Source of the DNA: Escherichia coli
GTDB taxonomy: Bacteria; Pseudomonadota; Gammaproteobacteria; Enterobacterales; Enterobacteriaceae
Assembly (NCBI RefSeq): GCF_024223415.1
Contig: NZ_CP100503.1
Length of the DNA: 64,000 nt
Strand: one strand, 5' to 3'
Every line of letters begins with the position of its first letter. Position 1 is the first letter of the stretch. A program made the translations under genes and the position numbers. This document shows, one piece after another, positions 22,932 through 46,581 of this stretch. A model generated the notes under the pieces. That model had not been told where the DNA came from, searched no databases, and was given only the letters and a program-made list of their open reading frames with translations.

Positions 22932-22948
22932 TTTGCTCTAATAAATTG
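22932..22948 (+). promoter_or_regulatory. C1 operator of immI-like module A
   Basis: TTTGCTCTAATAAATTG, 4 bp after the pacB stop. Confidence 0.55.
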
Positions 22949-22959
22949 TGTTTTTTGAC

Positions 22960-23100
22960 TGCCGATGTTACATTGAACCTGACCTCTTGCGCCTTGAGGC
23001 TTTTTCGGTTTATGCTTATCAGGCACCTCATTAAAACGGGTGCCGGGATTGGCCTCCCGCTTAAGTCTAAGGCGATACAGACGCCGCTCGCGTCTTTTTT
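22960..23100 (+). ncRNA. c4: Putative c4-like antisense RNA leader of module A
   Basis: Non-coding leader between operator and icd; ends at weak hairpin GACGC-N-GCGTC plus T6 (23080-23100); contains GTCTAAGG element repeated at the icd RBS. Confidence 0.3.
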
Positions 23101-23265
23101 GTATCGGCGTACACGCACACCTCTACAATGGTGGGCTGTATGGGGCTACCTTCGGGTAGGCTGGTTACCTTGGACGCCAGTAAGGCCAACTCCGTACAGT
23201 CCACCGCCAGCAAGATTGGTCTCTTCTGCGGTGGTTACATACCAACGTCTAAGGAGGCTGCCAAT

Positions 23266-23487
23266 ATGGCTACTATCCCTACCCCAACTCATCCTGAATT
23301 TATCTGGCGCTTTTACTCCTGCCAAAAACGTCACTATCACTTCGTTATTGCACCAACAGAAGATGAGGCCCGCTCTCAGCTTCCTGACGCCCCATGTATT
23401 TTCTCTGCCCGTTTTTCCACTGATTCACGCAATTCTCTCAGTTACTGGTGCCTCCCTGTTAACGCTTCTGCTCAGGAGGGACTATGA
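23266..23487 (+). CDS. icd: Icd-like small protein
   Basis: 74 aa from ATG at 23266 with AAGGAGG RBS; shares EFIWRFYSCQKRHYHFVIAPTEDEARSQLPDAPCIFSARF with copies B and C; stop overlaps ant start (ATGA). Confidence 0.6.
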   Translation: MATIPTPTHPEFIWRFYSCQKRHYHFVIAPTEDEARSQLPDAPCIFSARFSTDSRNSLSYWCLPVNASAQEGL

Positions 23488-24599
23488 GAACGTCATTAGT
23501 CACCCGTGAAGAGATGATCGAGGCAATTGAACAGCACACTGCCTGTATCAGTACCAGGGATATACCGGGCGTTATTGCCAACTACTTCATGATCACCAAA
23601 CAACTTTACCGGAGAAAGGACAAGAACGCGGTTCACCGCATTCTGCTAACCGATATCCGCGAATACCTGCTCGAACAGGGTCATCTGAATTACGCAACCG
23701 TCGCAGCCGAAACACGCAAGGAGGCACACAGAATGAAAGCAACTAACGTTAAATCAGAAAAAATTCATGCAACTTCAGTTCAGGAATCAGAGCTGGTGGT
23801 TGTTCAGAATCAGTCTGATGAAATTCCCGTTCTGGAATGGCTGGGAGTGCGTGTAGTGACAACCAAGATCCTTGCTAAGGGGTATGGGACCGATGCGGAT
23901 AACATCAAGAAGAACTTTTCCCGTAATGCTGAACGTTTTTGTGAAGGCAAGCATTTCTATAAAGTTATTGGAGATGATTTGAACAATTTGCGGGTGACTT
24001 TAAGTAACTCACAAAATCCCATCTCTCCTAAAGCCCGTTCACTCATCCTCTGGACAGAACGCGGCGCTGCCCGTCACGCTAAAATGCTCGAAACCGATCA
24101 GGCATGGGCATTCTTTGAAAAACTGGAAGACAGCTACTTCCGGCAAAAAGAACAGCAACCGGTTGCAATCCCCCAAACATTACCAGAAGCCCTACGCCTG
24201 GCTGCCGAACTGGCTGAACAAAAGCAGCTTCTGGAACAGAAAGCCCACCAGCTAAATCAGCAGCTGGTGGCCGCCGCTCCTAAGGTCGATTTTGCCGACC
24301 GGGTATCAGTAGCTAAAGGGATCCTGATTGGGAATTTTGCAAAGGTTGTTGGACTTAAGCAAAACGCGCTGTTTGCCTGGTTACGGGAGAACGGCATCCT
24401 GATAGCGTCCGGTGGACGTAAAAATGTGCCGTTCCAGCAGTACATCAACGCGGGGTATTTCACGGTGAAAGAAGTGGTGCTGGATGATGAAGATGGCTAC
24501 CAGATACGGTTGACGCCTCAATTAACGGGTAAAGGCCAGCAGTGGTTGACGCGTAAACTGCTCGATGCTGGCTTGTTAAAACCGGTGGCGGCTGAATAA
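23484..24599 (+). CDS. ant: Antirepressor Ant paralog A (KilA-C C-terminal domain)
   Basis: 371 aa; translationally coupled to icd; C-terminal domain shared with KilA (43795-44595) and other Ant copies. Confidence 0.7.
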   Translation: MRTSLVTREEMIEAIEQHTACISTRDIPGVIANYFMITKQLYRRKDKNAVHRILLTDIREYLLEQGHLNYATVAAETRKEAHRMKATNVKSEKIHATSVQESELVVVQNQSDEIPVLEWLGVRVVTTKILAKGYGTDADNIKKNFSRNAERFCEGKHFYKVIGDDLNNLRVTLSNSQNPISPKARSLILWTERGAARHAKMLETDQAWAFFEKLEDSYFRQKEQQPVAIPQTLPEALRLAAELAEQKQLLEQKAHQLNQQLVAAAPKVDFADRVSVAKGILIGNFAKVVGLKQNALFAWLRENGILIASGGRKNVPFQQYINAGYFTVKEVVLDDEDGYQIRLTPQLTGKGQQWLTRKLLDAGLLKPVAAE

Positions 24600-24606
24600 T
24601 GGAAGA

Positions 24607-24636
24607 ATGCCCGGTTGATGCCGGGCATAATTTATT
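24607..24636 (+). terminator. Hairpin between convergent ant A and c1
   Basis: ATGCCCGG-TTGATG-CCGGGCAT followed by AATTTATT; same hairpin recurs at 35220. Confidence 0.55.
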
Positions 24637-25483
24637 GCGCGCTTTCGGGGTTGTCGTTTACTGGCTGCCCCTTCTTGGTTTTACGGCTGCGCGTAACTGA
24701 TGCGGCTGACTTAACCTTTTTCTCTTCGCGAGTGATGGCAATTTGTTTTTTTACATTTTCAATATCTGCCAGGCGATATATTTTTGCTTGCGGCCAGCGG
24801 TCGCAGATGATCGGTTCTATGGAGTCATAAAGGCTAAATTTTGCTTTTTCGAATTCACCGTTGATGATAATTCCATCACGGAGAGTTTCATCGCAGATAA
24901 ACACGCCACACAGTGGCACATGGTAACTCACTGATTTACCGTTATTGTAGTTAGGACTACTGGAGATGTAGTGAACGCGCAGCATTGTTTCGCTAAAGCC
25001 GTGTACGCGCATACGGAATTTTTCATCCTCCGGGTACTGCTTCATTAGCTCTTTTGTTGCTTCCAGGTTCTCTATGTATTTCGCACTGTGCTCATTGAAC
25101 CCCGCGCTTTTTTGGATGCGAATGTCCTTATCAATCAGATGAATAATGCGGCCAGCGGTCATGTTGACGCTGTTTACAGCTTCTGTCTGATAGGTCGTAA
25201 CCTTACGCACACCGCGAAGGATGTTAGGCACAGGATATAAAATAGTCTTTGGGATATTGAGGTCTGGGTACTGTTCCAGTTCCCGCGCCATTAAAGTCCA
25301 TTTATCAATTTCAGCCTGAATGCTGTCAGTTTCTTTGAACGGTAGAACGACAACCGGGCGTACAGGACGACCGTCGCTGGCTGTATCAACGTGTTGGGCG
25401 CGTGCAACAGCTTTTTTTAGAAAGAGATCCCTGAAGCTGACGAACTCCTGGTACAGTTGTTCGCCGTAGACATAATTTATCAT
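24632..25483 (-). CDS. c1: C1 primary immunity repressor
   Basis: 283 aa; matches P1 C1 as I recall it; operators cluster upstream. Confidence 0.9.
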   Translation of the reverse strand: MINYVYGEQLYQEFVSFRDLFLKKAVARAQHVDTASDGRPVRPVVVLPFKETDSIQAEIDKWTLMARELEQYPDLNIPKTILYPVPNILRGVRKVTTYQTEAVNSVNMTAGRIIHLIDKDIRIQKSAGFNEHSAKYIENLEATKELMKQYPEDEKFRMRVHGFSETMLRVHYISSSPNYNNGKSVSYHVPLCGVFICDETLRDGIIINGEFEKAKFSLYDSIEPIICDRWPQAKIYRLADIENVKKQIAITREEKKVKSAASVTRSRKTKKGQPVNDNPESAQ

Positions 25484-26456: not shown

Positions 26457-26759
26457 ATGAAGATTATTTCGGTAAAAACATTGAGGGATTTTTGGTCTGT
26501 GAATCCCGATGCAGAACAACCATTAAAGGCCTGGGTTGACGAAGTCTCCAAGGCCACCTGGAAAAGCCCGGCTGATATCAAAGCGCAGTACCGATCTGCC
26601 AGCATTCTTAAAAACAGGCGGGTTGTCTTCAACATCAAAGGTAATGACTACAGATTAATTGTTGCAATTGCTTATCAGCGAGGATGGATGTTCGTTAAGT
26701 TTATTGGAACACATAAGGAATACGATGCCATCGACGCGGATACAATAGAGCTGGAGTAA
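26457..26759 (+). CDS. higB: HigB-family type II toxin (RelE/ParE superfamily mRNA interferase)
   Basis: 100 aa; C-terminal THKEYD motif and toxin-first gene order. Confidence 0.7.
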   Translation: MKIISVKTLRDFWSVNPDAEQPLKAWVDEVSKATWKSPADIKAQYRSASILKNRRVVFNIKGNDYRLIVAIAYQRGWMFVKFIGTHKEYDAIDADTIELE

Positions 26760-26762
26760 ATC

Positions 26763-27122
26763 ATGAACATTAAACCTATCCGTACAGAACAAGATTATCA
26801 GGCCGCACTACGCGCGGTCGAACCTATGTTCGATAACGAACCGGAAATGAACACCCCGGAAGGTGATTTCTTTGAGATAATGTGCCTGCTTATTGAAGAG
26901 TATGAAAAAAGACATTACCCAATTGAACCGCCTACACCCATTGAAGCGATTAAGTTCCGTATGGAACAGCAAGGGTTGACAGTGAAAGATCTGGAACCGG
27001 CGATTGGTAAGTCGAACCGTGTTTACGAAGTTCTGAATGGAACGCGAAATTTAACGTTACCAATGATTAGGCGTTTGCACGTACAGTTTGGCATTCCTCT
27101 CGAAAGTCTGGTTGGTGTGTGA
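26763..27122 (+). CDS. higA: HigA-family antitoxin (XRE-type HTH)
   Basis: 119 aa; C-terminal HTH (GKSNRVYEVLNGTRNLTLPMIRRL) resembling E. coli HigA. Confidence 0.7.
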   Translation: MNIKPIRTEQDYQAALRAVEPMFDNEPEMNTPEGDFFEIMCLLIEEYEKRHYPIEPPTPIEAIKFRMEQQGLTVKDLEPAIGKSNRVYEVLNGTRNLTLPMIRRLHVQFGIPLESLVGV

Positions 27123-27128
27123 CTTAAA

Positions 27129-28181
27129 ATGTCTAATGTCCTGACCGTACACCAAAATTTGCCTGCATTACCGGTCGATGCAACGAGTGATGAGGTTCGC
27201 AAGAACCTGATGGACATGTTCAGGGATCGCCAGGCGTTTTCTGAGCATACCTGGAAAATGCTTCTGTCCGTTTGCCGGTCGTGGGCGGCATGGTGCAAGT
27301 TGAATAACCGGAAATGGTTTCCCGCAGAACCTGAAGATGTTCGCGATTATCTTCTATATCTTCAGGCGCGCGGTCTGGCAGTAAAAACTATCCAGCAACA
27401 TTTGGGCCAGCTAAACATGCTTCATCGTCGGTCCGGGCTGCCACGACCAAGTGACAGCAATGCTGTTTCACTGGTTATGCGGCGGATCCGAAAAGAAAAC
27501 GTTGATGCCGGTGAACGTGCAAAACAGGCTCTAGCGTTCGAACGCACTGATTTCGACCAGGTTCGTTCACTCATGGAAAATAGCGATCGCTGCCAGGATA
27601 TACGTAATCTGGCATTTCTGGGGATTGCTTATAACACCCTGTTACGTATAGCCGAAATTGCCAGGATCAGGGTTAAAGATATCTCACGTACTGACGGTGG
27701 GAGAATGTTAATCCATATTGGCAGAACGAAAACGCTGGTTAGCACCGCAGGTGTAGAGAAGGCACTTAGCCTGGGGGTAACTAAACTGGTTGAGCGATGG
27801 ATTTCTGTCTCTGGTGTAGCTGATGATCCGAATAACTACCTGTTTTGCCGCGTCAGAAAAAATGGTGTTGCCGCGCCATCACCCACCAGCCAGCTATCAA
27901 CTCGCGCCCTGGAAGGGATTTTTGAAGCAACTCACCGATTGATTTACGGGGCTAAGGATGACTCTGGCCAGAGGTACCTGGCCTGGTCTGGACACAGTGC
28001 CCGTGTCGGAGCCGCGCGAGATATGGCCCGCGCCGGAGTTTCAATACCGGAGATCATGCAAGCTGGTGGCTGGACCAACGTAAATATTGTCATGAACTAT
28101 ATCCGTAACCTGGATAGTGAAACAGGGGCAATGGTGCGCCTGCTGGAAGTTGACATCCTCCCCCACCTTCGCACTTCGTGA
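27129..28181 (+). CDS. cre: Cre tyrosine recombinase with altered C-terminus
   Basis: 350 aa; matches P1 Cre as I recall it up to ...MVRLLE, then VDILPHLRTS encoded by IS end instead of DGD. Confidence 0.9.
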   Translation: MSNVLTVHQNLPALPVDATSDEVRKNLMDMFRDRQAFSEHTWKMLLSVCRSWAAWCKLNNRKWFPAEPEDVRDYLLYLQARGLAVKTIQQHLGQLNMLHRRSGLPRPSDSNAVSLVMRRIRKENVDAGERAKQALAFERTDFDQVRSLMENSDRCQDIRNLAFLGIAYNTLLRIAEIARIRVKDISRTDGGRMLIHIGRTKTLVSTAGVEKALSLGVTKLVERWISVSGVADDPNNYLFCRVRKNGVAAPSPTSQLSTRALEGIFEATHRLIYGAKDDSGQRYLAWSGHSARVGAARDMARAGVSIPEIMQAGGWTNVNIVMNYIRNLDSETGAMVRLLEVDILPHLRTS

Positions 28182-28200
28182 CTCAGGAGGGGGATTCCCA

Positions 28201-29433
28201 TTAGTGGGTGACGGCTGATTGCTCAGCGTCTGGTTCCTGCTTCAACGGGCGGTCTGACTGCACCGTCCCTCCACAGGCAAGTACGGCGTGCCCCGCCGCT
28301 AAAATGTTGCGAGCGCCGTTTACATCGGCGTTCGCTGTATATCCACAAGCCCGACACACGAATTTACTTTGTGTCAGGCGGTTTTCTTTCGCTGTATGAC
28401 CACAGCACGCGCAACGCTGGCTTGTGTACGCTGGCGGAACAGCAAGCACCTGACCACCACGCCAGAGCTGCTTGTACTCAAGCTGGCGGCGCATTTCATA
28501 CCAGCCCTGATCCAGTATCGAACGGTTTAAACCTGATTTTGCCCGGACATTGCGCCCCGGCTGGCTGACCGTACCCGCTGCTGACTTTGACATGTTGCTG
28601 ACCTTCAAATCCTCAATGACTATCATTGCGTGGTTTTTGCTGACGGTCGTTGTGACTTTGTGAAGGTAGTCCCTGCGGATATTTGCAATACGGGAATGCA
28701 GTTGCTGTATTTTGCGTTTCTGCTTCTGCCAGTTGTTGCTGAATTTGACCCTGCGGCTTAACTGTCGCTGAAGTCTCGCCAGCTTCTTCTGGTTTTTCTG
28801 AAAACTGTTTACAGGTTCAAAGACTGTGCCATCTGACAGCGTGGCGAGTTTAGCCACGCCAGCATCCAGACCGACTATCGTTGTGCTTGTGTGATTTGGT
28901 TCTGCCGTTTCAATTTCAACCTGAAACGAGATATACCACTGTCCCGCTAACTGACTGATTGTCGCATTTTTGATTTTACCGTTCACACGTTGAGATTGCC
29001 GGAATTTTACCCACCCAAGACCTGACGGTAGCTTCACTCTGCGATTTTCAAGGCAGCAATATTTCTCAAAGTTCACAAAACGGATTGAGTCTCTGCCCTC
29101 ATTTTTTCGTTTCCATACCGGAGCCTTAGCTGCGAGCTTTTTATCAAAACAACGTTTCCATGCGGTATGCAGGTCTTTCAGCTTTTGTTGCAGATTGTCG
29201 GTATAAGCATCCTGTAAGAAGATATATTCCGGCATTTTTTTCCACACTGTAATCATCCGGTTCAACTCGAAAGCCGAAGGTAACTTTTCGCCTGAGCCAA
29301 GTACGCGCTTTGTCTCCGCAAGACCTAAATTCCAGACAAAACGGGCGCAACCACATAACTGCCGCAAACGCTGCGACTGTTCATGCGTTGGTTCCAGTCT
29401 GAATTTGTAGGCTTTCAGGATTAGCATCATCAT
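28201..29433 (-). CDS. tnpB: TnpB (OrfB-family RNA-guided nuclease-like protein)
   Basis: 410 aa; C-terminal RuvC-like and zinc-finger region ([13 protein letters not shown]...[18 protein letters not shown]). Confidence 0.85.
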
Positions 29434-29485
29434 TCAGTGTGTAGTAGATTTTCTTGCAATATTACTGTTTTTACGGCCAACCTCA

Positions 29486-29890
29486 ATGCAAAAATACAAA
29501 ATCAATCGTTCAAGACATGCTGCCTTCCTTTTGCATGTTCATCTTGTCTTTGTAACAAAATACCGTCGAAAGATACTGGGAGAGTTACACTGTGCAGCAT
29601 TCCATCAGTATGCAGCAGAAGTCTGCCGTGACTTTGGGGCAGAACTTAAAGAAAGTAACGGAGATGTCGATCATGTCCACATGCTGATCGAATACCCACC
29701 AACAGTGCAGCTTTCGGTACTGGTTAACTCACTGAAAGCAGTGACATCCCGCCGTCTGCGAAACGAATTTCTTGATTTGCGGGGGGCATACGGAAAAGCC
29801 GTGCTCTGGTCGAGGTCATACTTTGCTGGCTCCTGCGGAGGTGCGCCGCTGGAAGTTGTGAAGCAATATATTCAACATCAGCGAGGCTGA
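29486..29890 (+). CDS. tnpA: IS200-type Y1 (HUH) transposase TnpA
   Basis: 134 aa; HVHLVF, HuH motif DHVHMLI, catalytic Tyr region WSRSYFAGS. Confidence 0.85.
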   Translation: MQKYKINRSRHAAFLLHVHLVFVTKYRRKILGELHCAAFHQYAAEVCRDFGAELKESNGDVDHVHMLIEYPPTVQLSVLVNSLKAVTSRRLRNEFLDLRGAYGKAVLWSRSYFAGSCGGAPLEVVKQYIQHQRG

Positions 29891-29995
29891 GCACCCTTCG
29901 GGCTTTTCAAGCCCGTCCAAATTCCCCTGCCGCCTTATGTCGGCGGGAGTACCCTTTGGAAGTTAAGATGGCGATTAGCCATTAACGCGTAAATG

Positions 29996-30012
29996 ATTGC
30001 TCTAATTCTTTG
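29996..30012 (+). promoter_or_regulatory. C1 operator
   Basis: ATTGCTCTAATTCTTTG. Confidence 0.55.
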
Positions 30013-30028
30013 ATATTTATGGTGACAT

Positions 30029-30340
30029 ATGAGAAAGGATTTCAACATCGACGGAAAATATGTAGTGCTGTCTGTAAGCACTAATATTCAGTCGCCAGCC
30101 GTCATTGTCACTGTAAAGCTGAGCGATAGAATACCTGATATTGACTCAATATCCGTTGCGTTCCCTGTCAAAAGTATTCGTAGTGCTGAACATTTCGTGA
30201 TGAATGCCACCGAGGAAGAAGCACGGCGCGGTTTTGCTAAAGTGATGTCTGAGTTTGGCGAACTCTTGGGTAAGGTTAACAATGTCCTTTCAATCAGTTC
30301 AGCAAGGTCCAAAGCGTTAACAGCTTCCATGATGAAATAA
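30029..30340 (+). CDS. Hypothetical protein
   Basis: 103 aa ORF immediately downstream of a C1 operator. Confidence 0.4.
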   Translation: MRKDFNIDGKYVVLSVSTNIQSPAVIVTVKLSDRIPDIDSISVAFPVKSIRSAEHFVMNATEEEARRGFAKVMSEFGELLGKVNNVLSISSARSKALTASMMK

Positions 30341-30471
30341 AAAAAGCCTGGCAAGGAGCCAGGCTGCACAAAAGAGCGGGTTTGTATTCCGCATCCAATC
30401 AATCAAGAAGGAGTATAGCACACAGGTACTGAAGTGAAAAAATGTGATTCGCGATTAACAAAATATCTACC

Positions 30472-30488
30472 ATTGCTCTAATTGATTG
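30472..30488 (+). promoter_or_regulatory. C1 operator with no downstream ORF
   Basis: ATTGCTCTAATTGATTG. Confidence 0.5.
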
Positions 30489-30554
30489 ATATAATTAAGC
30501 CGCAGTTTTTGTCAACTACGAAGACATTGCCATTATAGACTCCGTGACATCATT

Positions 30555-30578
30555 GGCGGCCGAAAGGCCGCCTTTTTT
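30555..30578 (+). terminator. Rho-independent terminator
   Basis: GGCGGCC-GAAA-GGCCGCC followed by TTTTTT. Confidence 0.65.
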
Positions 30579-30580
30579 AA

Positions 30581-31645
30581 TCATTCAGCCGCCACAGGTT
30601 TTAACAAGCCAGCATCGAGCAGTTTACGCGTCAACCACTGCTGGCCTTTCCCCGTTAATTGGGGCGTCAGCCGTATCTGGTAGCCCTCTTCATCATCCAG
30701 CACCACTTCTTTCACTGTGAAATATCCGGCGTTTATGTACTGCTGGAACGGTACATTTTTACGTCCACCGGACGCTATCAGGATGCCGTTCTCCCGTAAC
30801 CAGGCAAACAGCGCGTTTTGCTTAAGTCCAACAACCTTTGCAAAATTCCCAATCAGGATTCCATTAGCCACTGATACCCGGTCGGCAAAATCGACTTTAG
30901 GAGCGGCGGCCACCAGCTGCTGATTTAGCTGGTGGGCTTTCTGTTCCAGAAGTTGCTTTTGTTCAGCCAACTCGGCAGCCAGGCGGAGGGCTTCGGGGAG
31001 TGTCTGGGGGATCGCTGGAGAAGCAGCGCTAACCTGCTGCAACTCCTCCAGCTTGTCGATCAACGAACGGCGGACCGCTTTTGACTCGCGCGCGGCAACT
31101 CGCAGGGCTTGTTTGTAGGTCATGGTTATGACCTCAAAAGAGCGCCCAGCCCTTGTGCCATGGGATTTTACGAAAGTTTCGTAAAATTCCCCATCAAGTT
31201 CATCCTTAATTCTATTGAGAAAATCGTTATTGCGGATCTCATTTTCCCCACATAGCTTGCGCGCCTCATTGACCATCTTTAACAGTGTCTGGCTGTCGAT
31301 TGTGTCGCCCGTACTGGGGATAACATCCATGGCTGGTAGTGGTGTGGATTCTATCAAAGGCTTTGTAACGACAACATCTGGTTTGCTTGCTTTCATTCTG
31401 TGTGCCTCCTTGCGTGCTTCGGCGGTTACGGTTGCATAATCAAGACGACCCTGTTCGAGCAGGTATTCACGGATATCAGTTAGCAGAATGCGGTGAACCG
31501 CGTTCTTGTCCTTTCTCCGGTAAAGTTGTTTGGTGATCATGAAGTAGTTGGCTATAACACCAGGAATGTCCCTGGCGCTGATACAGATTGTGTGCTGTTC
31601 AATAGCCTCGATCATTTCTTCACGGGTAACTAATGACGTTCTCAT
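30581..31645 (-). CDS. ant: Antirepressor Ant paralog B (KilA-C C-terminal domain)
   Basis: 354 aa; N- and C-terminal regions near-identical to Ant A/C, central region resembles Ant D. Confidence 0.7.
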   Translation of the reverse strand: MRTSLVTREEMIEAIEQHTICISARDIPGVIANYFMITKQLYRRKDKNAVHRILLTDIREYLLEQGRLDYATVTAEARKEAHRMKASKPDVVVTKPLIESTPLPAMDVIPSTGDTIDSQTLLKMVNEARKLCGENEIRNNDFLNRIKDELDGEFYETFVKSHGTRAGRSFEVITMTYKQALRVAARESKAVRRSLIDKLEELQQVSAASPAIPQTLPEALRLAAELAEQKQLLEQKAHQLNQQLVAAAPKVDFADRVSVANGILIGNFAKVVGLKQNALFAWLRENGILIASGGRKNVPFQQYINAGYFTVKEVVLDDEEGYQIRLTPQLTGKGQQWLTRKLLDAGLLKPVAAE

Positions 31646-31863
31646 AGCCCCTCCTGAGCAGAAGCGTTAACAGGGAGGCACCAGTAACTGAGAGAGTTGC
31701 GCGAGTCAGTAGAAAAGCGTGCAGAGAAAATGCAGGGAGCGTCAGGAAGCTGAGAACGGGCCTCATCTTCTGTTGGTGCAATGACGAAGTGATAGTGACG
31801 TTTTTGACAAGAATAGAAGCGCCAGATAAATTCCGGGCGTGCGCAAGGATTGGCATTAACCAT
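31642..31863 (-). CDS. icd: Icd-like small protein
   Basis: 73 aa; identical to Icd copy C; overlaps ant B start. Confidence 0.6.
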   Translation of the reverse strand: MVNANPCARPEFIWRFYSCQKRHYHFVIAPTEDEARSQLPDAPCIFSARFSTDSRNSLSYWCLPVNASAQEGL

Positions 31864-32023
31864 AGTTACGGCCTCACAAGTTGAATTAACAACCTGCTAC
31901 CCGCTGTCAAACAGGTGGCAGGACGTGACAGGGTTGACAGACTGGCACTTGTGAAACCAGCAGGCCGAAGCCTCCCCATCACGCCCCACCATAATTCGGG
32001 CGTAACGCGGTTTTACGGACACA

Positions 32024-32170
32024 AAAATACCGCAATAACGGAGTGATGCGGTTGTCCGCACAAGTATTCAGGCTGTCAAACCCGGTCGCAGAATTTGCTA
32101 CGACGCAGGAACTATAAGCCTGAACGACGGGAAGATCAATAGTCTGGCGTCCAATAGTAGTTTATTTGTT
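32024..32170 (-). ncRNA. c4: Putative c4-like antisense RNA of module B
   Basis: Colinear (no indels) with the module C leader; GGTTTGACAGCC element at 32071-32082 (rc). Confidence 0.3.
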
Positions 32171-32181
32171 CCAATAAATCA

Positions 32182-32197
32182 AATTTATTAGAGCAAT
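32182..32197 (-). promoter_or_regulatory. C1 operator of immI-like module B
   Basis: AATTTATTAGAGCAAT on plus strand. Confidence 0.6.
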
Positions 32198-32428
32198 ACA
32201 ATCTGGTTGAATGTTTCCTCTCCGAGGTTGCAATGTGCACACTTATTGTTTTATTTGTATGCACTAATAAATATATTATTTTTAATAATAAATAATTGAC
32301 AACTGACAAGTGACTTCAGTCAGAATCATCACACGCCCGGTACGGATGGATCCCTTTTCAAATATTCCATGGACGGCACAGTCTGAGTACCGGGCGCTAC
32401 CTTCAGTTGTATTGCTAAGCCGCCGCTG

Positions 32429-33547: not shown

Positions 33548-33564
33548 ATTGCTCTAATAAATTT
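33548..33564 (+). promoter_or_regulatory. C1 operator of immI-like module C
   Basis: ATTGCTCTAATAAATTT, perfect consensus. Confidence 0.65.
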
Positions 33565-33574
33565 GATTTTTTAG

Positions 33575-33721
33575 GGCAAATAAACTACCATTGCGCACTG
33601 CCCTATTGATCTCCTTACCGTTCAGGCTTATATTCATGCCGTCGTAGCAAATTCTGCGACCGGGTTTAGCAGCCTGAATACTTACGCGGACAACCGCAGA
33701 TATCCGATATTGCGGTATTTT
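33575..33721 (+). ncRNA. c4: Putative c4-like antisense RNA of module C
   Basis: Leader with GGTTTAGCAGCC (33663-33674) and hairpin ACCGCAGA-N-TGCGGT plus ATTTTC (33693-33721); complementary element CTGCTAACC at 33805-33813. Confidence 0.3.
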
Positions 33722-33881
33722 CATGTCCGTATAACCGCGTTACGCCCGAATTATGGTGGGGCGTGATGGGGAGGCTTCGGCCTGCTGGTTTCGTAAGTGC
33801 CAGTCTGCTAACCCCGTCACGTCCTGCCACCTGTTTAGCAGCGGGTCGCAGGTTGTTTTATCAACTTACGAGGCCGTAACT

Positions 33882-34103
33882 ATGGTTAATGCCAATCCTT
33901 GCGCACGCCCTGAATTTATCTGGCGCTTTTACTCCTGCCAAAAACGTCACTATCACTTCGTTATTGCACCAACAGAAGATGAGGCCCGCTCTCAGCTTCC
34001 TGACGCCCCATGTATTTTCTCTGCCCGCTTTTCCACTGATTCGCGCAACTCTCTCAGTTACTGGTGCCTCCCTGTTAACGCTTCTGCTCAGGAGGGACTA
34101 TGA
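33882..34103 (+). CDS. icd: Icd-like small protein
   Basis: 73 aa from ATG at 33882; stop overlaps ant C start. Confidence 0.6.
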   Translation: MVNANPCARPEFIWRFYSCQKRHYHFVIAPTEDEARSQLPDAPCIFSARFSTDSRNSLSYWCLPVNASAQEGL

Positions 34104-35212
34104 GAACATCGTTAGTTACCCGTGAAGAGATGATCGAGGCAATTGAACAGCACACTGCCTGTATCAGTACCAGGGATATACCGGGCGTTATTGCCAACTA
34201 CTTCATGATCACCAAACAACTTTACCGGAGAAAGGACAAAAACGCGGTTCACCGCATTCTGCTAACCGATATCCGTGAATACCTGCTCGAACAGGGTCAT
34301 CTGAATTACGCAACCGTCGCAGCCGAAGCACGCAAGGAGGCACACAGAATGAAAGCAACTAACGTTAAATCAGAAAAAATTTATGCACCTTCAGTTCAGG
34401 AATCGGAACTGGTGGTTGTTCAGAATCAGCCGGATGAAATTCCCGTTCTGGAATGGCAGGGAGTACGTGTCGTGACAACCGAAACTCTTGCTAGAGGGTA
34501 TGGGACCGAAACTAATAACATCAAAGTTAACTATACGCGTAATGCTGATCGCTTTGAGGAAGGTAAACATTACTTTCTACTAACTGGTTCAAAATTAAAA
34601 GAATTGAAGGACAAGGTTACTCAAAGTAACTTAGTCGCACCGCGAGCAAAGCACCTCACTCTCTGGACGGAACGCGGCGCAGCCCGCCACGCTAAAATGC
34701 TCGAAACCGATCAGGCATGGGCATTCTTTGAAAAACTGGAAGACAGCTACTTCCGACAAAAAGAACAGCAACCGATCGCAATCCCCCAGACGCTTCCTGA
34801 AGCTCTGCGCCTGGCTGCCGAACTGGCTGAACAAAAGCAACTTCTGGAACAGAAAGCCCACCAGCTAAATCAGCAGCTGGTGGCCGCAGCCCCTAAAGTC
34901 GAGTTTGCCGACCGGGTATCAGTGGCCAAGGGGATCCTGATTGGGAATTTTGCAAAGGTTGTTGGACTTAAGCAAAACGCGCTGTTTGCCTGGTTACGGG
35001 AGAACGGCATCCTGATAGCGTCCGGTGGACGTAAAAATGTGCCGTTCCAGCAATACATCAACGCCGGGTATTTCACGGTGAAAGAAGTGGTGCTGGATGA
35101 TGAAGATGGCTACCAGATACGGTTGACGCCCCAGCTAACTGGGAAAGGCCAGCAGTGGTTGACGCGTAAACTGCTCGATGCTGGCTTGTTAAAACCGGTG
35201 GCGGCTGAATAA
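34100..35212 (+). CDS. ant: Antirepressor Ant paralog C (KilA-C C-terminal domain)
   Basis: 370 aa; closest to Ant A throughout. Confidence 0.7.
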   Translation: MRTSLVTREEMIEAIEQHTACISTRDIPGVIANYFMITKQLYRRKDKNAVHRILLTDIREYLLEQGHLNYATVAAEARKEAHRMKATNVKSEKIYAPSVQESELVVVQNQPDEIPVLEWQGVRVVTTETLARGYGTETNNIKVNYTRNADRFEEGKHYFLLTGSKLKELKDKVTQSNLVAPRAKHLTLWTERGAARHAKMLETDQAWAFFEKLEDSYFRQKEQQPIAIPQTLPEALRLAAELAEQKQLLEQKAHQLNQQLVAAAPKVEFADRVSVAKGILIGNFAKVVGLKQNALFAWLRENGILIASGGRKNVPFQQYINAGYFTVKEVVLDDEDGYQIRLTPQLTGKGQQWLTRKLLDAGLLKPVAAE

Positions 35213-40863: not shown

Positions 40864-41280
40864 CTAACCAGGTGTTTGCTGTTGTTCAATGTATTGGCGG
40901 ATGATGGATATTGGTGCGCCACCGCAGCTACTGGCAAAATAGCTGGGACTCCATAAAACGCCTTTGTAGTAATATCGGGCTGCAATATCTGGTCGATCTC
41001 GTCGCAATAATCTACTCGATACGCCCTTGAGACTGTTCACCAGGCTGGATATCGCCAATTTGGGGGGATAGTTAATTAGCAGGTGAACGTGATCTCGTTC
41101 TCCATCCATTTCAACCAGTTCAGCTTCAAAATCAGCACATACACTTGAAAAGTAAGTGCGTAGTTTTTCTATTGCGTCATGGTCAAAAATCTGACGTCGG
41201 TATTTTGCGACAAAGACCAGGTGAACGTGCATCAGGAAGACGCAGTGTCTTCCACGTCGGATATCAGTTTCTTTTTTTAT
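40864..41280 (-). pseudogene. tnpA: IS200-type transposase tnpA with start codon changed to ATA
   Basis: Copy 3 has ATG at the equivalent position (63558-63560); copy 2 has ATA at 41278-41280; ORF track only finds a TTG-initiated 178-aa extension. Confidence 0.5.
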
Positions 41281-42511
41281 GGACCAAAGTATAATTTGGC
41301 TTATGAAACGACTACAAGCTTTCAAATTCCAGTTAAGACCAAATGGACAGCAGGAGCGTGAAATGAGGCGCTTCGCGGGCGCATGTCGTTTCGTTTTCAA
41401 TCGTGCTCTGGCGCTTCAGAATGAGAATCATGAGGCCGGGAACAAATATATTTCTTATGCAAAGATGACTTCCTGGCTGGTTGAATGGAAAAATGCTACT
41501 GAAACGCAATGGCTTAAAGATTCTCCCTCACAGCCATTGCAGCAGTCACTGAAAGACCTTGAGCGAGCCTACAAAAATTTCTTTCAGAAGCGTGCCTCTT
41601 TTCCCCGCTTCAAAAAGCGGGGACAGAATGATGCATTCCGCTATCCGCAGGGCGTTAAGCTCGACCAAGGGAACGGTCGTATTTTTCTGCCAAAACTTGG
41701 CTGGATGCACTACCGGAACAGCCGTCAGGTCTCGGGGATTGTGAAAAACGTCACTGTCAGCCAGTCCTGCGGTAAGTGGTACATCAGTATTCAGACAGAA
41801 AGTGAAGTATCAACTCCGGTTCACCCTTCAGCATCAATAGTCGGTCTGGATGCAGGCGTGGCTAAACTCGCCACGCTGTCAGATGGCACAGTCTTTGAGC
41901 CTGTAAACAGTTTTCAGAAAAACCAGAAGACGCTGGCGAGACTTCAGCGACAGTTAAGCCGCAAGGTCAAATTCAGCAACAACTGGCAGAAGCAGAAATG
42001 CAAAATACAGCGACTGCATTCCCGTATCGCAAATATCCGCAGGGACTACCTTCACAAAGTCACAACGACCGTCAGCAAAAACCACGCCATGATAGTCATT
42101 GAGGATTTGAAGGTCAGTAACATGTCAAAGTCAGCAGCGGGTACGGTCAGCCAGCCGGGGCGCAATGTCCGGGCAAAATCAGGTTTAAACCGTTCGATAC
42201 TGGATCAGGGCTGGTATGAAATGCGCCGTCAGCTTGAGTACAAGCAGCTCTGGCGAGGCGGTCAGGTGCTTGCGGTTCCGCCAGCGTACACAAGCCAGCG
42301 TTGCGCGTGCTGTGGTCATACAGCGAAAGAAAACCGCCTGTCACAAAGTCAATTCAGATGCCAGGTATGTGGATATACAGCGAACGCCGATGTAAACGGC
42401 GCTCGTAACATTTTAGCGGCGGGGCACGCCGTTCTTGCCTGTGGAGGGATGGTGCAGTCAGGCCGCCCGTTGAAGCAGGAACCCACCGAAATGATTCAGG
42501 CGACAGCCTGA
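41279..42511 (+). CDS. tnpB: TnpB
   Basis: 410 aa; C-terminal 230 aa nearly identical to tnpB at 28201-29433, N-terminal half divergent. Confidence 0.85.
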
Positions 42512-45766: not shown

Positions 45767-45948
45767 TACAATCGTTACGGGTGCTTGAGGCTATCTGCTT
45801 CAGGCATTACCCGAAAAGCAGATAGAAGAAAGCCCCAGATAACATTACGCGTCCTGCAAGACGCTTAACATTAATCTGAGGCCATCTCTATGCTTAGCAT
45901 ACGTAGATTAACCCTCTCCCCTTTTAAGGAGCAAGGAATTTTTTACTG

Positions 45949-46581
45949 CTATGCCGCATTTCCAATTATGGATTCAGCGACCAGAACAACCCCATGCTTA
46001 CTTCGATCTGGGTGTTCACTCCATATCTCGGATTCAGGAATACTTACCCCGTCATAGCAAACACGTTCGCCGTCAAACGGGTAATACTGAGCGGCATCGG
46101 TGTCAAGGATAAACACTTTTAGCTCGGAAGAGCGACGGGCGATGTGTTGCCAAAGAGCTTTTCCACCTTCGTATTGCTCATTATCACTGAGCAAAACAAC
46201 ACCAGCTTTTGAGGCTACGGTTTCGTAAACAAAAGTAGCTAAACCGACATCCCGGACGGTTCCATCAACCACGATACCTTCAATCTGGGCAACATCGCTA
46301 TCCTCCCAGAACTTCCTTACCAGTACGCCTTCAAGCTGCGGGCGACGTTGAAGTTCAAGAGTAGCGACAACCTTATGGCGCATATCACCATCGATAATAG
46401 AAGGCGCAGCCTCTATTACAGCTGCAAATGGGGTTTTGGAATCCCATATAACCTGGTAAAGCACACCCTGGATGGTAACTCCGTCCAGGATCGAAAATCG
46501 ACGAGCGACAGTACCCGGGGAGTACGACATTGGAATCACAGCCATTTTAGAGTCCCCCTTTAACAGTACAGGCACAAACAT
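45949..46581 (-). CDS. Hypothetical protein
   Basis: 210 aa ORF. Confidence 0.4.
   Translation of the reverse strand: MFVPVLLKGDSKMAVIPMSYSPGTVARRFSILDGVTIQGVLYQVIWDSKTPFAAVIEAAPSIIDGDMRHKVVATLELQRRPQLEGVLVRKFWEDSDVAQIEGIVVDGTVRDVGLATFVYETVASKAGVVLLSDNEQYEGGKALWQHIARRSSELKVFILDTDAAQYYPFDGERVCYDGVSIPESEIWSEHPDRSKHGVVLVAESIIGNAA

Follow-up and report, generated by a model that had tools for sequence, protein, structure and literature searches.

The window, by which we mean the whole 64-kb stretch of DNA analyzed, is a P1-like phage-plasmid. Between the stop codon of c8 and a convergent ant gene it carries a C1 operator, an extended -10 promoter element, and an intrinsic terminator; ant itself lies at the near end of an inverted immunity cassette (Table 1). 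A sequence-only reading had singled out this interval as an orphan C1 operator followed about 70 bp later by a strong terminator, and had proposed that it encodes a repressor-controlled small RNA, antisense to the 3′ untranslated end of the ant mRNA. We compared the interval with the annotated P1 genome (NC_005856) and with a set of 71 loci, 51 with ref and 20 with ant, which together yielded 22 distinct leader alleles. A scan of IMG/VR with a 15-nt leader motif (described below) returned mostly chance matches and was filtered to 48 genuine P1-like loci.

Table 1. Features of the operator-terminator interval and the adjoining cassette, in window coordinates
Feature	Position	Strand	Basis or remark
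Minus-strand intrinsic terminator AGCCTGGC-TCCTT-GCCAGGCT-T7	30338-30365	-	-16.2 kcal/mol
Weak P2ref -35, CTACCA	30467-30472	+	Placed by homology to the P1 annotation (1957-1962)
C1 operator ATTGCTCTAATTGATTG	30472-30488	+	Homologue of P1 Oref (formerly Op1/Op2a)
P2ref extended -10, TGaTATAAT	30487-30495	+	Aligned to P1 P2ref -10 (1980-1985)
Predicted P2ref leader RNA, ~75 nt	30502-30578	+	From promoter geometry
P1ref homologue, TTGCCA-15 nt-CATCAT	30527-30553	+	Aligned to P1 2017-2044; promoter predicted
Intrinsic terminator GGCGGCC-GAAA-GGCCGCC-T6	30555-30578	+	ref leader 'attenuator'
Inverted immI-type cassette replacing ref	30579-32259	-	P1 homology gap, 30578 to 32259
ant	30581-31645	-	Pfam ANT/KilAC domain, E = 9e-31
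icd-like ORF	31642-31863	-	RefSeq annotation of 99.8%-identical NZ_CP128972 supports cassette content
C4 antisense RNA	31911-31996	-	Rfam
a1/b1 target sites	32065-32117	-	Rfam c4-a1b1
Perfect C1 operator of cassette	32181-32197	-	Consensus match
Omat operator homologue ATGCACTAATAAATAT	32260-32275		Same as string within P1 2628-2645, annotated Omat; right swap boundary

The operator, promoter, and terminator

The operator agrees with the C1 consensus ATTGCTCTAATAAATTT, a 17-bp asymmetric site, at 14 of 17 positions, and is identical at all 17 to P1 nt 1962-1978. The P1 record annotates that site as 'monovalent C1 controlled operator Oref; controls transcription of ref' and states that it 'corresponds to former Op1 and Op2a'. 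The site is thus formally a C1 operator, with repressor binding predicted. C1-type sites with three or fewer mismatches occur 15 times in the window, against 0.32 expected from shuffled sequence. The C1 gene, a 283-aa ORF at 24632-25483 on the minus strand, occupies the position of the 'phage repressor protein C1' in the RefSeq annotation of NZ_CP128972, so that operator and cognate repressor are carried on the same element.

The -10 element belongs to the homologue of P2ref, one of two promoters predicted in NC_005856 (P2ref, -35 at 1957-1962 and -10 at 1980-1985; P1ref, 2017-2044). The TG of TGaTATAAT is formed by the final two bases of the operator, and the annotated P2ref of P1 has the same geometry. 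Because the operator overlaps the extended -10, bound C1 would occlude P2ref. Our consensus promoter scan did not list P2ref, since its -35 is poor. The homologue of P1ref, the weaker of the two predicted promoters, has a spacer 1 nt shorter than that of P1, and its start site would land within the 5′ arm of the terminator; in three loci (L004, L008, and L106), its -35 is destroyed by a 1-nt deletion.

The terminator combines seven G-C pairs, a 4-nt loop, and a T6 run, with a folding energy of -17.0 kcal/mol. It has the form of an intrinsic terminator, and termination is predicted. Its hairpin begins 66 nt after the operator ends, and the GGCGGCC hairpin occurs once in the 64-kb window; it is the sole canonical plus-strand terminator from the c8 stop to ant. 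The spacing and strength claimed for the operator-terminator pair were therefore borne out.

Placing the start site 7 nt past the -10 gives the leader RNA of Table 1, most likely ending in the T-run; a predicted 79-nt transcript folds with z = -3.7. The claim that no ORF separates operator and terminator also held, insofar as none of at least 30 aa lies wholly inside the interval. A mechanically called 58-aa GTG ORF (30544-30720) begins 11 nt 5′ of the hairpin and runs antisense through ant; we regard it as spurious. No ATG occurs in the predicted leader. A leader peptide was considered and rejected: the 9-codon TTG frame has no Shine-Dalgarno sequence and is broken relative to P1, as judged by eye. 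An antiterminator pairing of GCCGC (30499-30503) with GCGGC (30556-30560) was likewise set aside. It is weaker than the terminator, is not kept in divergent alleles, and requires an RNA start no later than 30499.

Several neighboring features were noted in passing. An operator-like sequence, ATTGCTCTAATTCTTTG, lies at 29999-30015 on the plus strand, 13 nt 5′ of the c8 ATG. Its initial 12 nt are those of Oref, and 23 of the 26 P1-like loci examined have it. P1 carries ATTGCTATAATTATTTG at this place, where its record annotates no C1 operator. Upstream, an IS200/IS605-family element (28150-29964) is inserted 11 nt ahead of the cre end, at P1 nt 1456, and encodes a Y1 transposase, TnpA (29486-29890, plus strand), and TnpB (28201-29433, minus strand); a second TnpB copy lies at 41279-42511 (plus strand). 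The insertion alters the Cre C terminus (350 aa versus 343 aa) and splits c8 from its predicted promoter inside cre. The right end of the element (29900-29972) shares 98.6% identity with a 73-bp part of the 'major intergenic region' of filamentous phage If1. Between lox and cre, at the site where P1 has cra, a HigB-like toxin and transcriptional-regulator pair (26457-27122, plus strand) is assigned by homology to genes annotated in RefSeq for NZ_CP128972. A sok antitoxin RNA of a hok/sok-type module lies at 45779-45953 (plus strand; Rfam, 91.4 bits).

Descent from the P1 ref region and the cassette swap

Window positions 29965-30578 align collinearly with P1 nt 1454-2069 at 97.1% identity over 616 nt, and the homology breaks off exactly at the end of the T-run, at 30578. 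In P1, the same 7-bp stem, with an ATTA loop and a T8 run, ends 8 nt ahead of the ref ATG; the ref coding sequence begins at 2077 (NC_005856). The two regions thus share the operator, the position of the extended -10, and the G+C stem followed by a T-run. They differ in the loop (GAAA in the window, ATTA in P1), in the length of the T-run (6 versus 8), and in what follows: ref in P1, a convergent ant in the window. A tblastn search of the 64-kb window detected no Ref homologue, whereas Cre, C8, and Mat do match.

Induction of ref in the lytic cycle and occlusion of one ref promoter by a C1 site are described in PMC4713147, and a ref attenuator-antiterminator is named in the title of a paper cited there (Windle, Laufer & Hays 1988, J Bacteriol 170:4881). 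Operator, promoter, and leader terminator had therefore already been described, through the P1 annotation and this cited work, as the control region of ref. By sequence descent the interval is the ref control region; by function it no longer is, as ref is not downstream.

Homology to P1 picks up again at 32259, at the Omat operator; in P1, that operator and the end of ref overlap. Between the T-run and Omat, P1 has 559 bp that are essentially the ref coding sequence. In their place the window has 1.68 kb, comprising the inverted immI-type cassette with ant, an icd-like ORF, C4, the a1/b1 sites, and a C1 operator of its own. The operator at Oref is an orphan because this swap removed ref. The word applies in that one sense: the same operator controls ref in P1, and the window has lost the gene.

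The TGA stop codon of ant (30581-30583) lies 2 nt past the T-run, and the hairpin stems are palindromic, so the same hairpin forms in minus-strand RNA right after the ant stop. It might on that account be the cassette's own terminator, arrived with ant, with the operator as an unrelated neighbor. We consider this scarcely credible. The same hairpin stands at the same place in P1, P7, SJ46, JL22, RCS47, and 45 other sampled ref-context loci, all without ant there, and only the plus strand has the T-tract. Each of the two remaining ant copies in the window closes with another hairpin, GCCCGG-TTGAT-GCCGGGC, which indicates that the GGCGGCC hairpin came from the ref side and not with the cassette. 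Membership of the hairpin in the ant cassette is contradicted.

The junction of c8, Oref, hairpin, and convergent ant is not confined to the window. About 55 of 705 matching plasmids have it, as do 53 complete E. coli genomes, with identities of 91-99.8%; it occurs also in E. albertii and E. fergusonii. Among 700 plasmids matching a query of the P1 leader plus ref, 558 keep ref. All 20 sampled ant-context loci share the junction TTTTTT|AATCA(T/C)TCA, which implies one ancestral event that spread by descent and recombination. The interval between c8 and mat has been reported as an insertion site and hot spot of variation in P1-like plasmids (PMC6906374), and an exchange of ref for ant at the T-run and Omat fits that hot spot.

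In all, the window holds three modules of C1 operator, c4, icd, and ant, at 22932-24599 (plus), 30581-32197 (minus), and 33548-35212 (plus), and two of the three are divergent around mat. Their C4 RNAs lie at 23124-23211, 31911-31996, and 33749-33834, and an isrK-like RNA at 23023-23100. Extra ant modules have been described between pacB and c1, and also at the res-mod site (PMC6906374).

Conservation of the leader in ref and ant contexts

Across the 22 alleles, conservation falls on the operator core, on TG-TATAAT, on a 15-nt block within the leader, on the stretch just 5′ of the hairpin, and on the stems, whose cells in the alignment are 99.4% paired. Variants in the stems are mostly G-U, and the loops vary freely (GAAA, ATTA, ATCA, GCAA, and TAAA). 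No stretch of the cre-c8-ant locus varies more than the leader body (30445-30544), with 58 of 100 columns variable. Within the leader, the 15-nt block GTCAACTACGAAGAC is nearly invariant in both contexts.

RNAalifold on the alleles retained the terminator alone, with 0 compensatory pairs. A 5′ hairpin predicted from the single sequence gave no covariation signal, was equaled by 90 of 500 shuffles, and has pairs broken in up to 9 of the 22 alleles. An apparent compensation in the leader, GCAG/UUGC versus GUGGC/GCCAU, proved to be out of register. Rfam, searched over the whole window at gathering score, gave nothing matching the interval; searched over 30250-30650 at E values up to 10, it gave only subthreshold, terminator-driven matches, the best on the plus strand in the interval being isrD, which scored 19 bits where the cut-off is 37.

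A nearly invariant block in an otherwise variable RNA could be the seed of a trans-acting small RNA, in which the single-stranded GUCAACUACGAAGAC, under C1 control, would pair with phage or host mRNAs in both contexts. The block lies partly within a hairpin loop in the P1-type fold, and the strong terminator with its U-tail resembles those of Hfq-dependent small RNAs. The stem flanking the block is not conserved, however, and no Rfam family comes at or near threshold. Neither a second copy nor a complement of the 15-mer occurs in the 64-kb window at three or fewer mismatches. The block can equally be read at the DNA level as part of a promoter, with a predicted -35, TTGTCA, at 30509-30514. A trans-acting role is, on balance, very unlikely.

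Changes to the operator and promoter were confined to loci without ref. Substitutions in the operator core (ATTGCTATAAT and ATTGTTATAAT) were found in 8 of the 20 ant-context loci and in none of the 48 assessable ref-context loci. The -10 is altered to CATAAT or deleted in four ant-context loci and no assessable ref-context locus, so that TATAAT is present in 16/20 and 48/48, respectively. One ant-context locus outside those eight (L021, NZ_CP058881) has lost 13 bp through the operator and -10, between TAATT repeats, and has in addition an A-C mismatch in the hairpin; such a deletion was seen in 0 of the 48 assessable ref-context loci. Both contexts include a small fraction of loci with imperfect hairpins. 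Two further ref-context loci from IMG/VR (L067 and L132) fall outside the assessable set, as Oref has lost its left half in both to a rearrangement upstream. Both keep TATAAT and ref, and ref may there have escaped C1 control.

The contrast between contexts points to relaxed constraint on promoter and operator after the loss of ref, with the terminator retained, although the loci are phylogenetically nonindependent, alleles recombine between contexts, and the changes may amount to as few as three or four events. At the same time, operator core, TG-TATAAT, and hairpin are intact in the window and in most ant-context loci amid flanking intergenic divergence of up to about 14%, which could mean that the promoter is still under selection and has not simply persisted.

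Taken together, the highly variable body, the lack of a supported structure or an Rfam family, and the restriction of promoter and operator changes to lineages without ref favor a remnant leader over a selected small RNA. What the interval shares with a small-RNA gene are the weakest of its marks: a predicted promoter, a predicted terminator, and no ORF. We judge it quite probable that the interval is the control region of ref stranded without its gene, and that any RNA made from it is a by-product and not the product of a dedicated small-RNA gene. Of the earlier proposal, the C1-repressed short RNA is a reasonable prediction, with the operator on the -10 and a terminator downstream; the free-standing gene gives way to a homologue of the P1 ref region.

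A separate small-RNA candidate lies on the opposite strand of the same intergenic region. Between c8 and ref, no intergenic block is better conserved than 30338-30440 (minus strand), which has 4 variable columns in 80 nt among 11 loci and is nearly invariant across the 22 alleles. Reading from 30440 to 30412, it has an extended -10 promoter-like sequence, TTTTCA-17-TGcTATACT, followed by the T7 terminator at 30365-30338. From this arrangement we predict an RNA absent from the annotation, about 65-70 nt long and made up of a 5′ hairpin, a U-rich linker, and the terminator. Rfam gave no family match here; SorX came closest, scoring 22.6 bits where 46.6 is the cut-off. On its predicted features, it is a better small-RNA candidate than the interval between Oref and the terminator.

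Antisense potential and the fate of a control region without its gene

The convergent layout sets the predicted leader against the end of the ant transcript. On the minus strand, the hairpin at 30555-30572 has no U-tract, and the first canonical terminator 3′ of the inverted ant is the one at 30365-30338. An ant 3′ UTR of about 240 nt would therefore probably span the whole Pref leader. The antisense relationship claimed from the sequence is geometrically correct on this layout, the ant 3′ end being itself a prediction.

Complementarity of this kind could have been put to use. The C1-repressed RNA of about 75 nt might be an exapted, OOP-like cis-antisense RNA kept for pairing with the 3′ UTR of the inverted ant, so that ant mRNA stability or expression is tuned at induction, for instance through RNase III cleavage, like OOP on cII. 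Lambda OOP, 77 nt long, is transcribed from a promoter of its own to its own terminator and is complementary to the 3′ end of the cII mRNA; it overlaps the cII coding sequence, and its RNase III-dependent activity has been demonstrated. The P2ref leader resembles OOP in size, in being a promoter-terminator unit convergent to a lysis-lysogeny regulator, and in complementarity to the 3′ end of that regulator's mRNA. It differs in that it would cover UTR only, ending 2 nt short of the ant stop codon, in being a prediction, and in its origin as what remained of a leader, where OOP has a dedicated gene. In the window, as in most of the 20 ant-context loci, promoter, operator, and terminator have stayed intact, the ant mRNA should include the full leader complement by read-through to 30365-30338, and both convergent promoters are C1-controlled and would fire together.

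Several observations weigh on the other side. The convergent layout gives complementarity automatically, without selection, and variation in the locus peaks in the leader. Some ant-context lineages have a weakened or deleted promoter or operator, and the neighboring ant is truncated in several loci (L008, L009), which argues against a finely tuned pair. We therefore regard recruitment as an antisense regulator as unlikely, though less so than a trans-acting role. Were it true, the leader would have been recruited to tune the antirepressor in phage-plasmids with three c4-icd-ant modules.

Two other kinds of short RNA invite comparison. The C4 RNA of P1 (RF01695) is the known small regulatory RNA of immI and, like the P2ref leader, has a C1-controlled promoter; it governs ant. 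The P2ref leader has no sequence or structural likeness to C4, and C4 is cut out of the 5′ portion of the ant operon transcript instead of coming from a convergent unit. Some terminated attenuator or riboswitch leaders act in trans, an example being Listeria SreA. Like these, the P2ref RNA would be a short RNA produced by premature termination in a 5′ leader. Unlike them, it has neither a gene downstream nor a supported alternative structure, whereas such leaders keep both gene and sensing structure.

For the stranded ref control region, we propose the following course of events. In an ancestor, the inverted 1.68-kb immI-type cassette would have taken the place of ref, from the base after the T-run to Omat. 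In the lysogen, C1 from 24632-25483 (minus strand), bound at Oref, would keep P2ref shut. On derepression P2ref would most likely fire, and polymerase would stop about 75 nt on, at 30576-30578, releasing a short, noncoding leader RNA. The terminator would then most likely serve as an insulator that blocks P2ref transcription from running antisense into ant-icd. As the first plus-strand terminator past c8, it would also stop cre-c8 transcription and read-through from the upstream IS tnpA ahead of ant. In P1, the same terminator would limit entry into ref.

What the interval holds is a regulatory region already known, in a variant setting that lacks the gene. It carries a caution for the annotation of such elements, since an operator, a promoter, and a terminator without a gene mimic a small-RNA gene and can simply be the control elements that a swap left behind. 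The locus further marks a mosaic boundary, precise and recurrent, in P1-like phage-plasmids, at which an inverted immunity cassette takes the place of the ref coding sequence.
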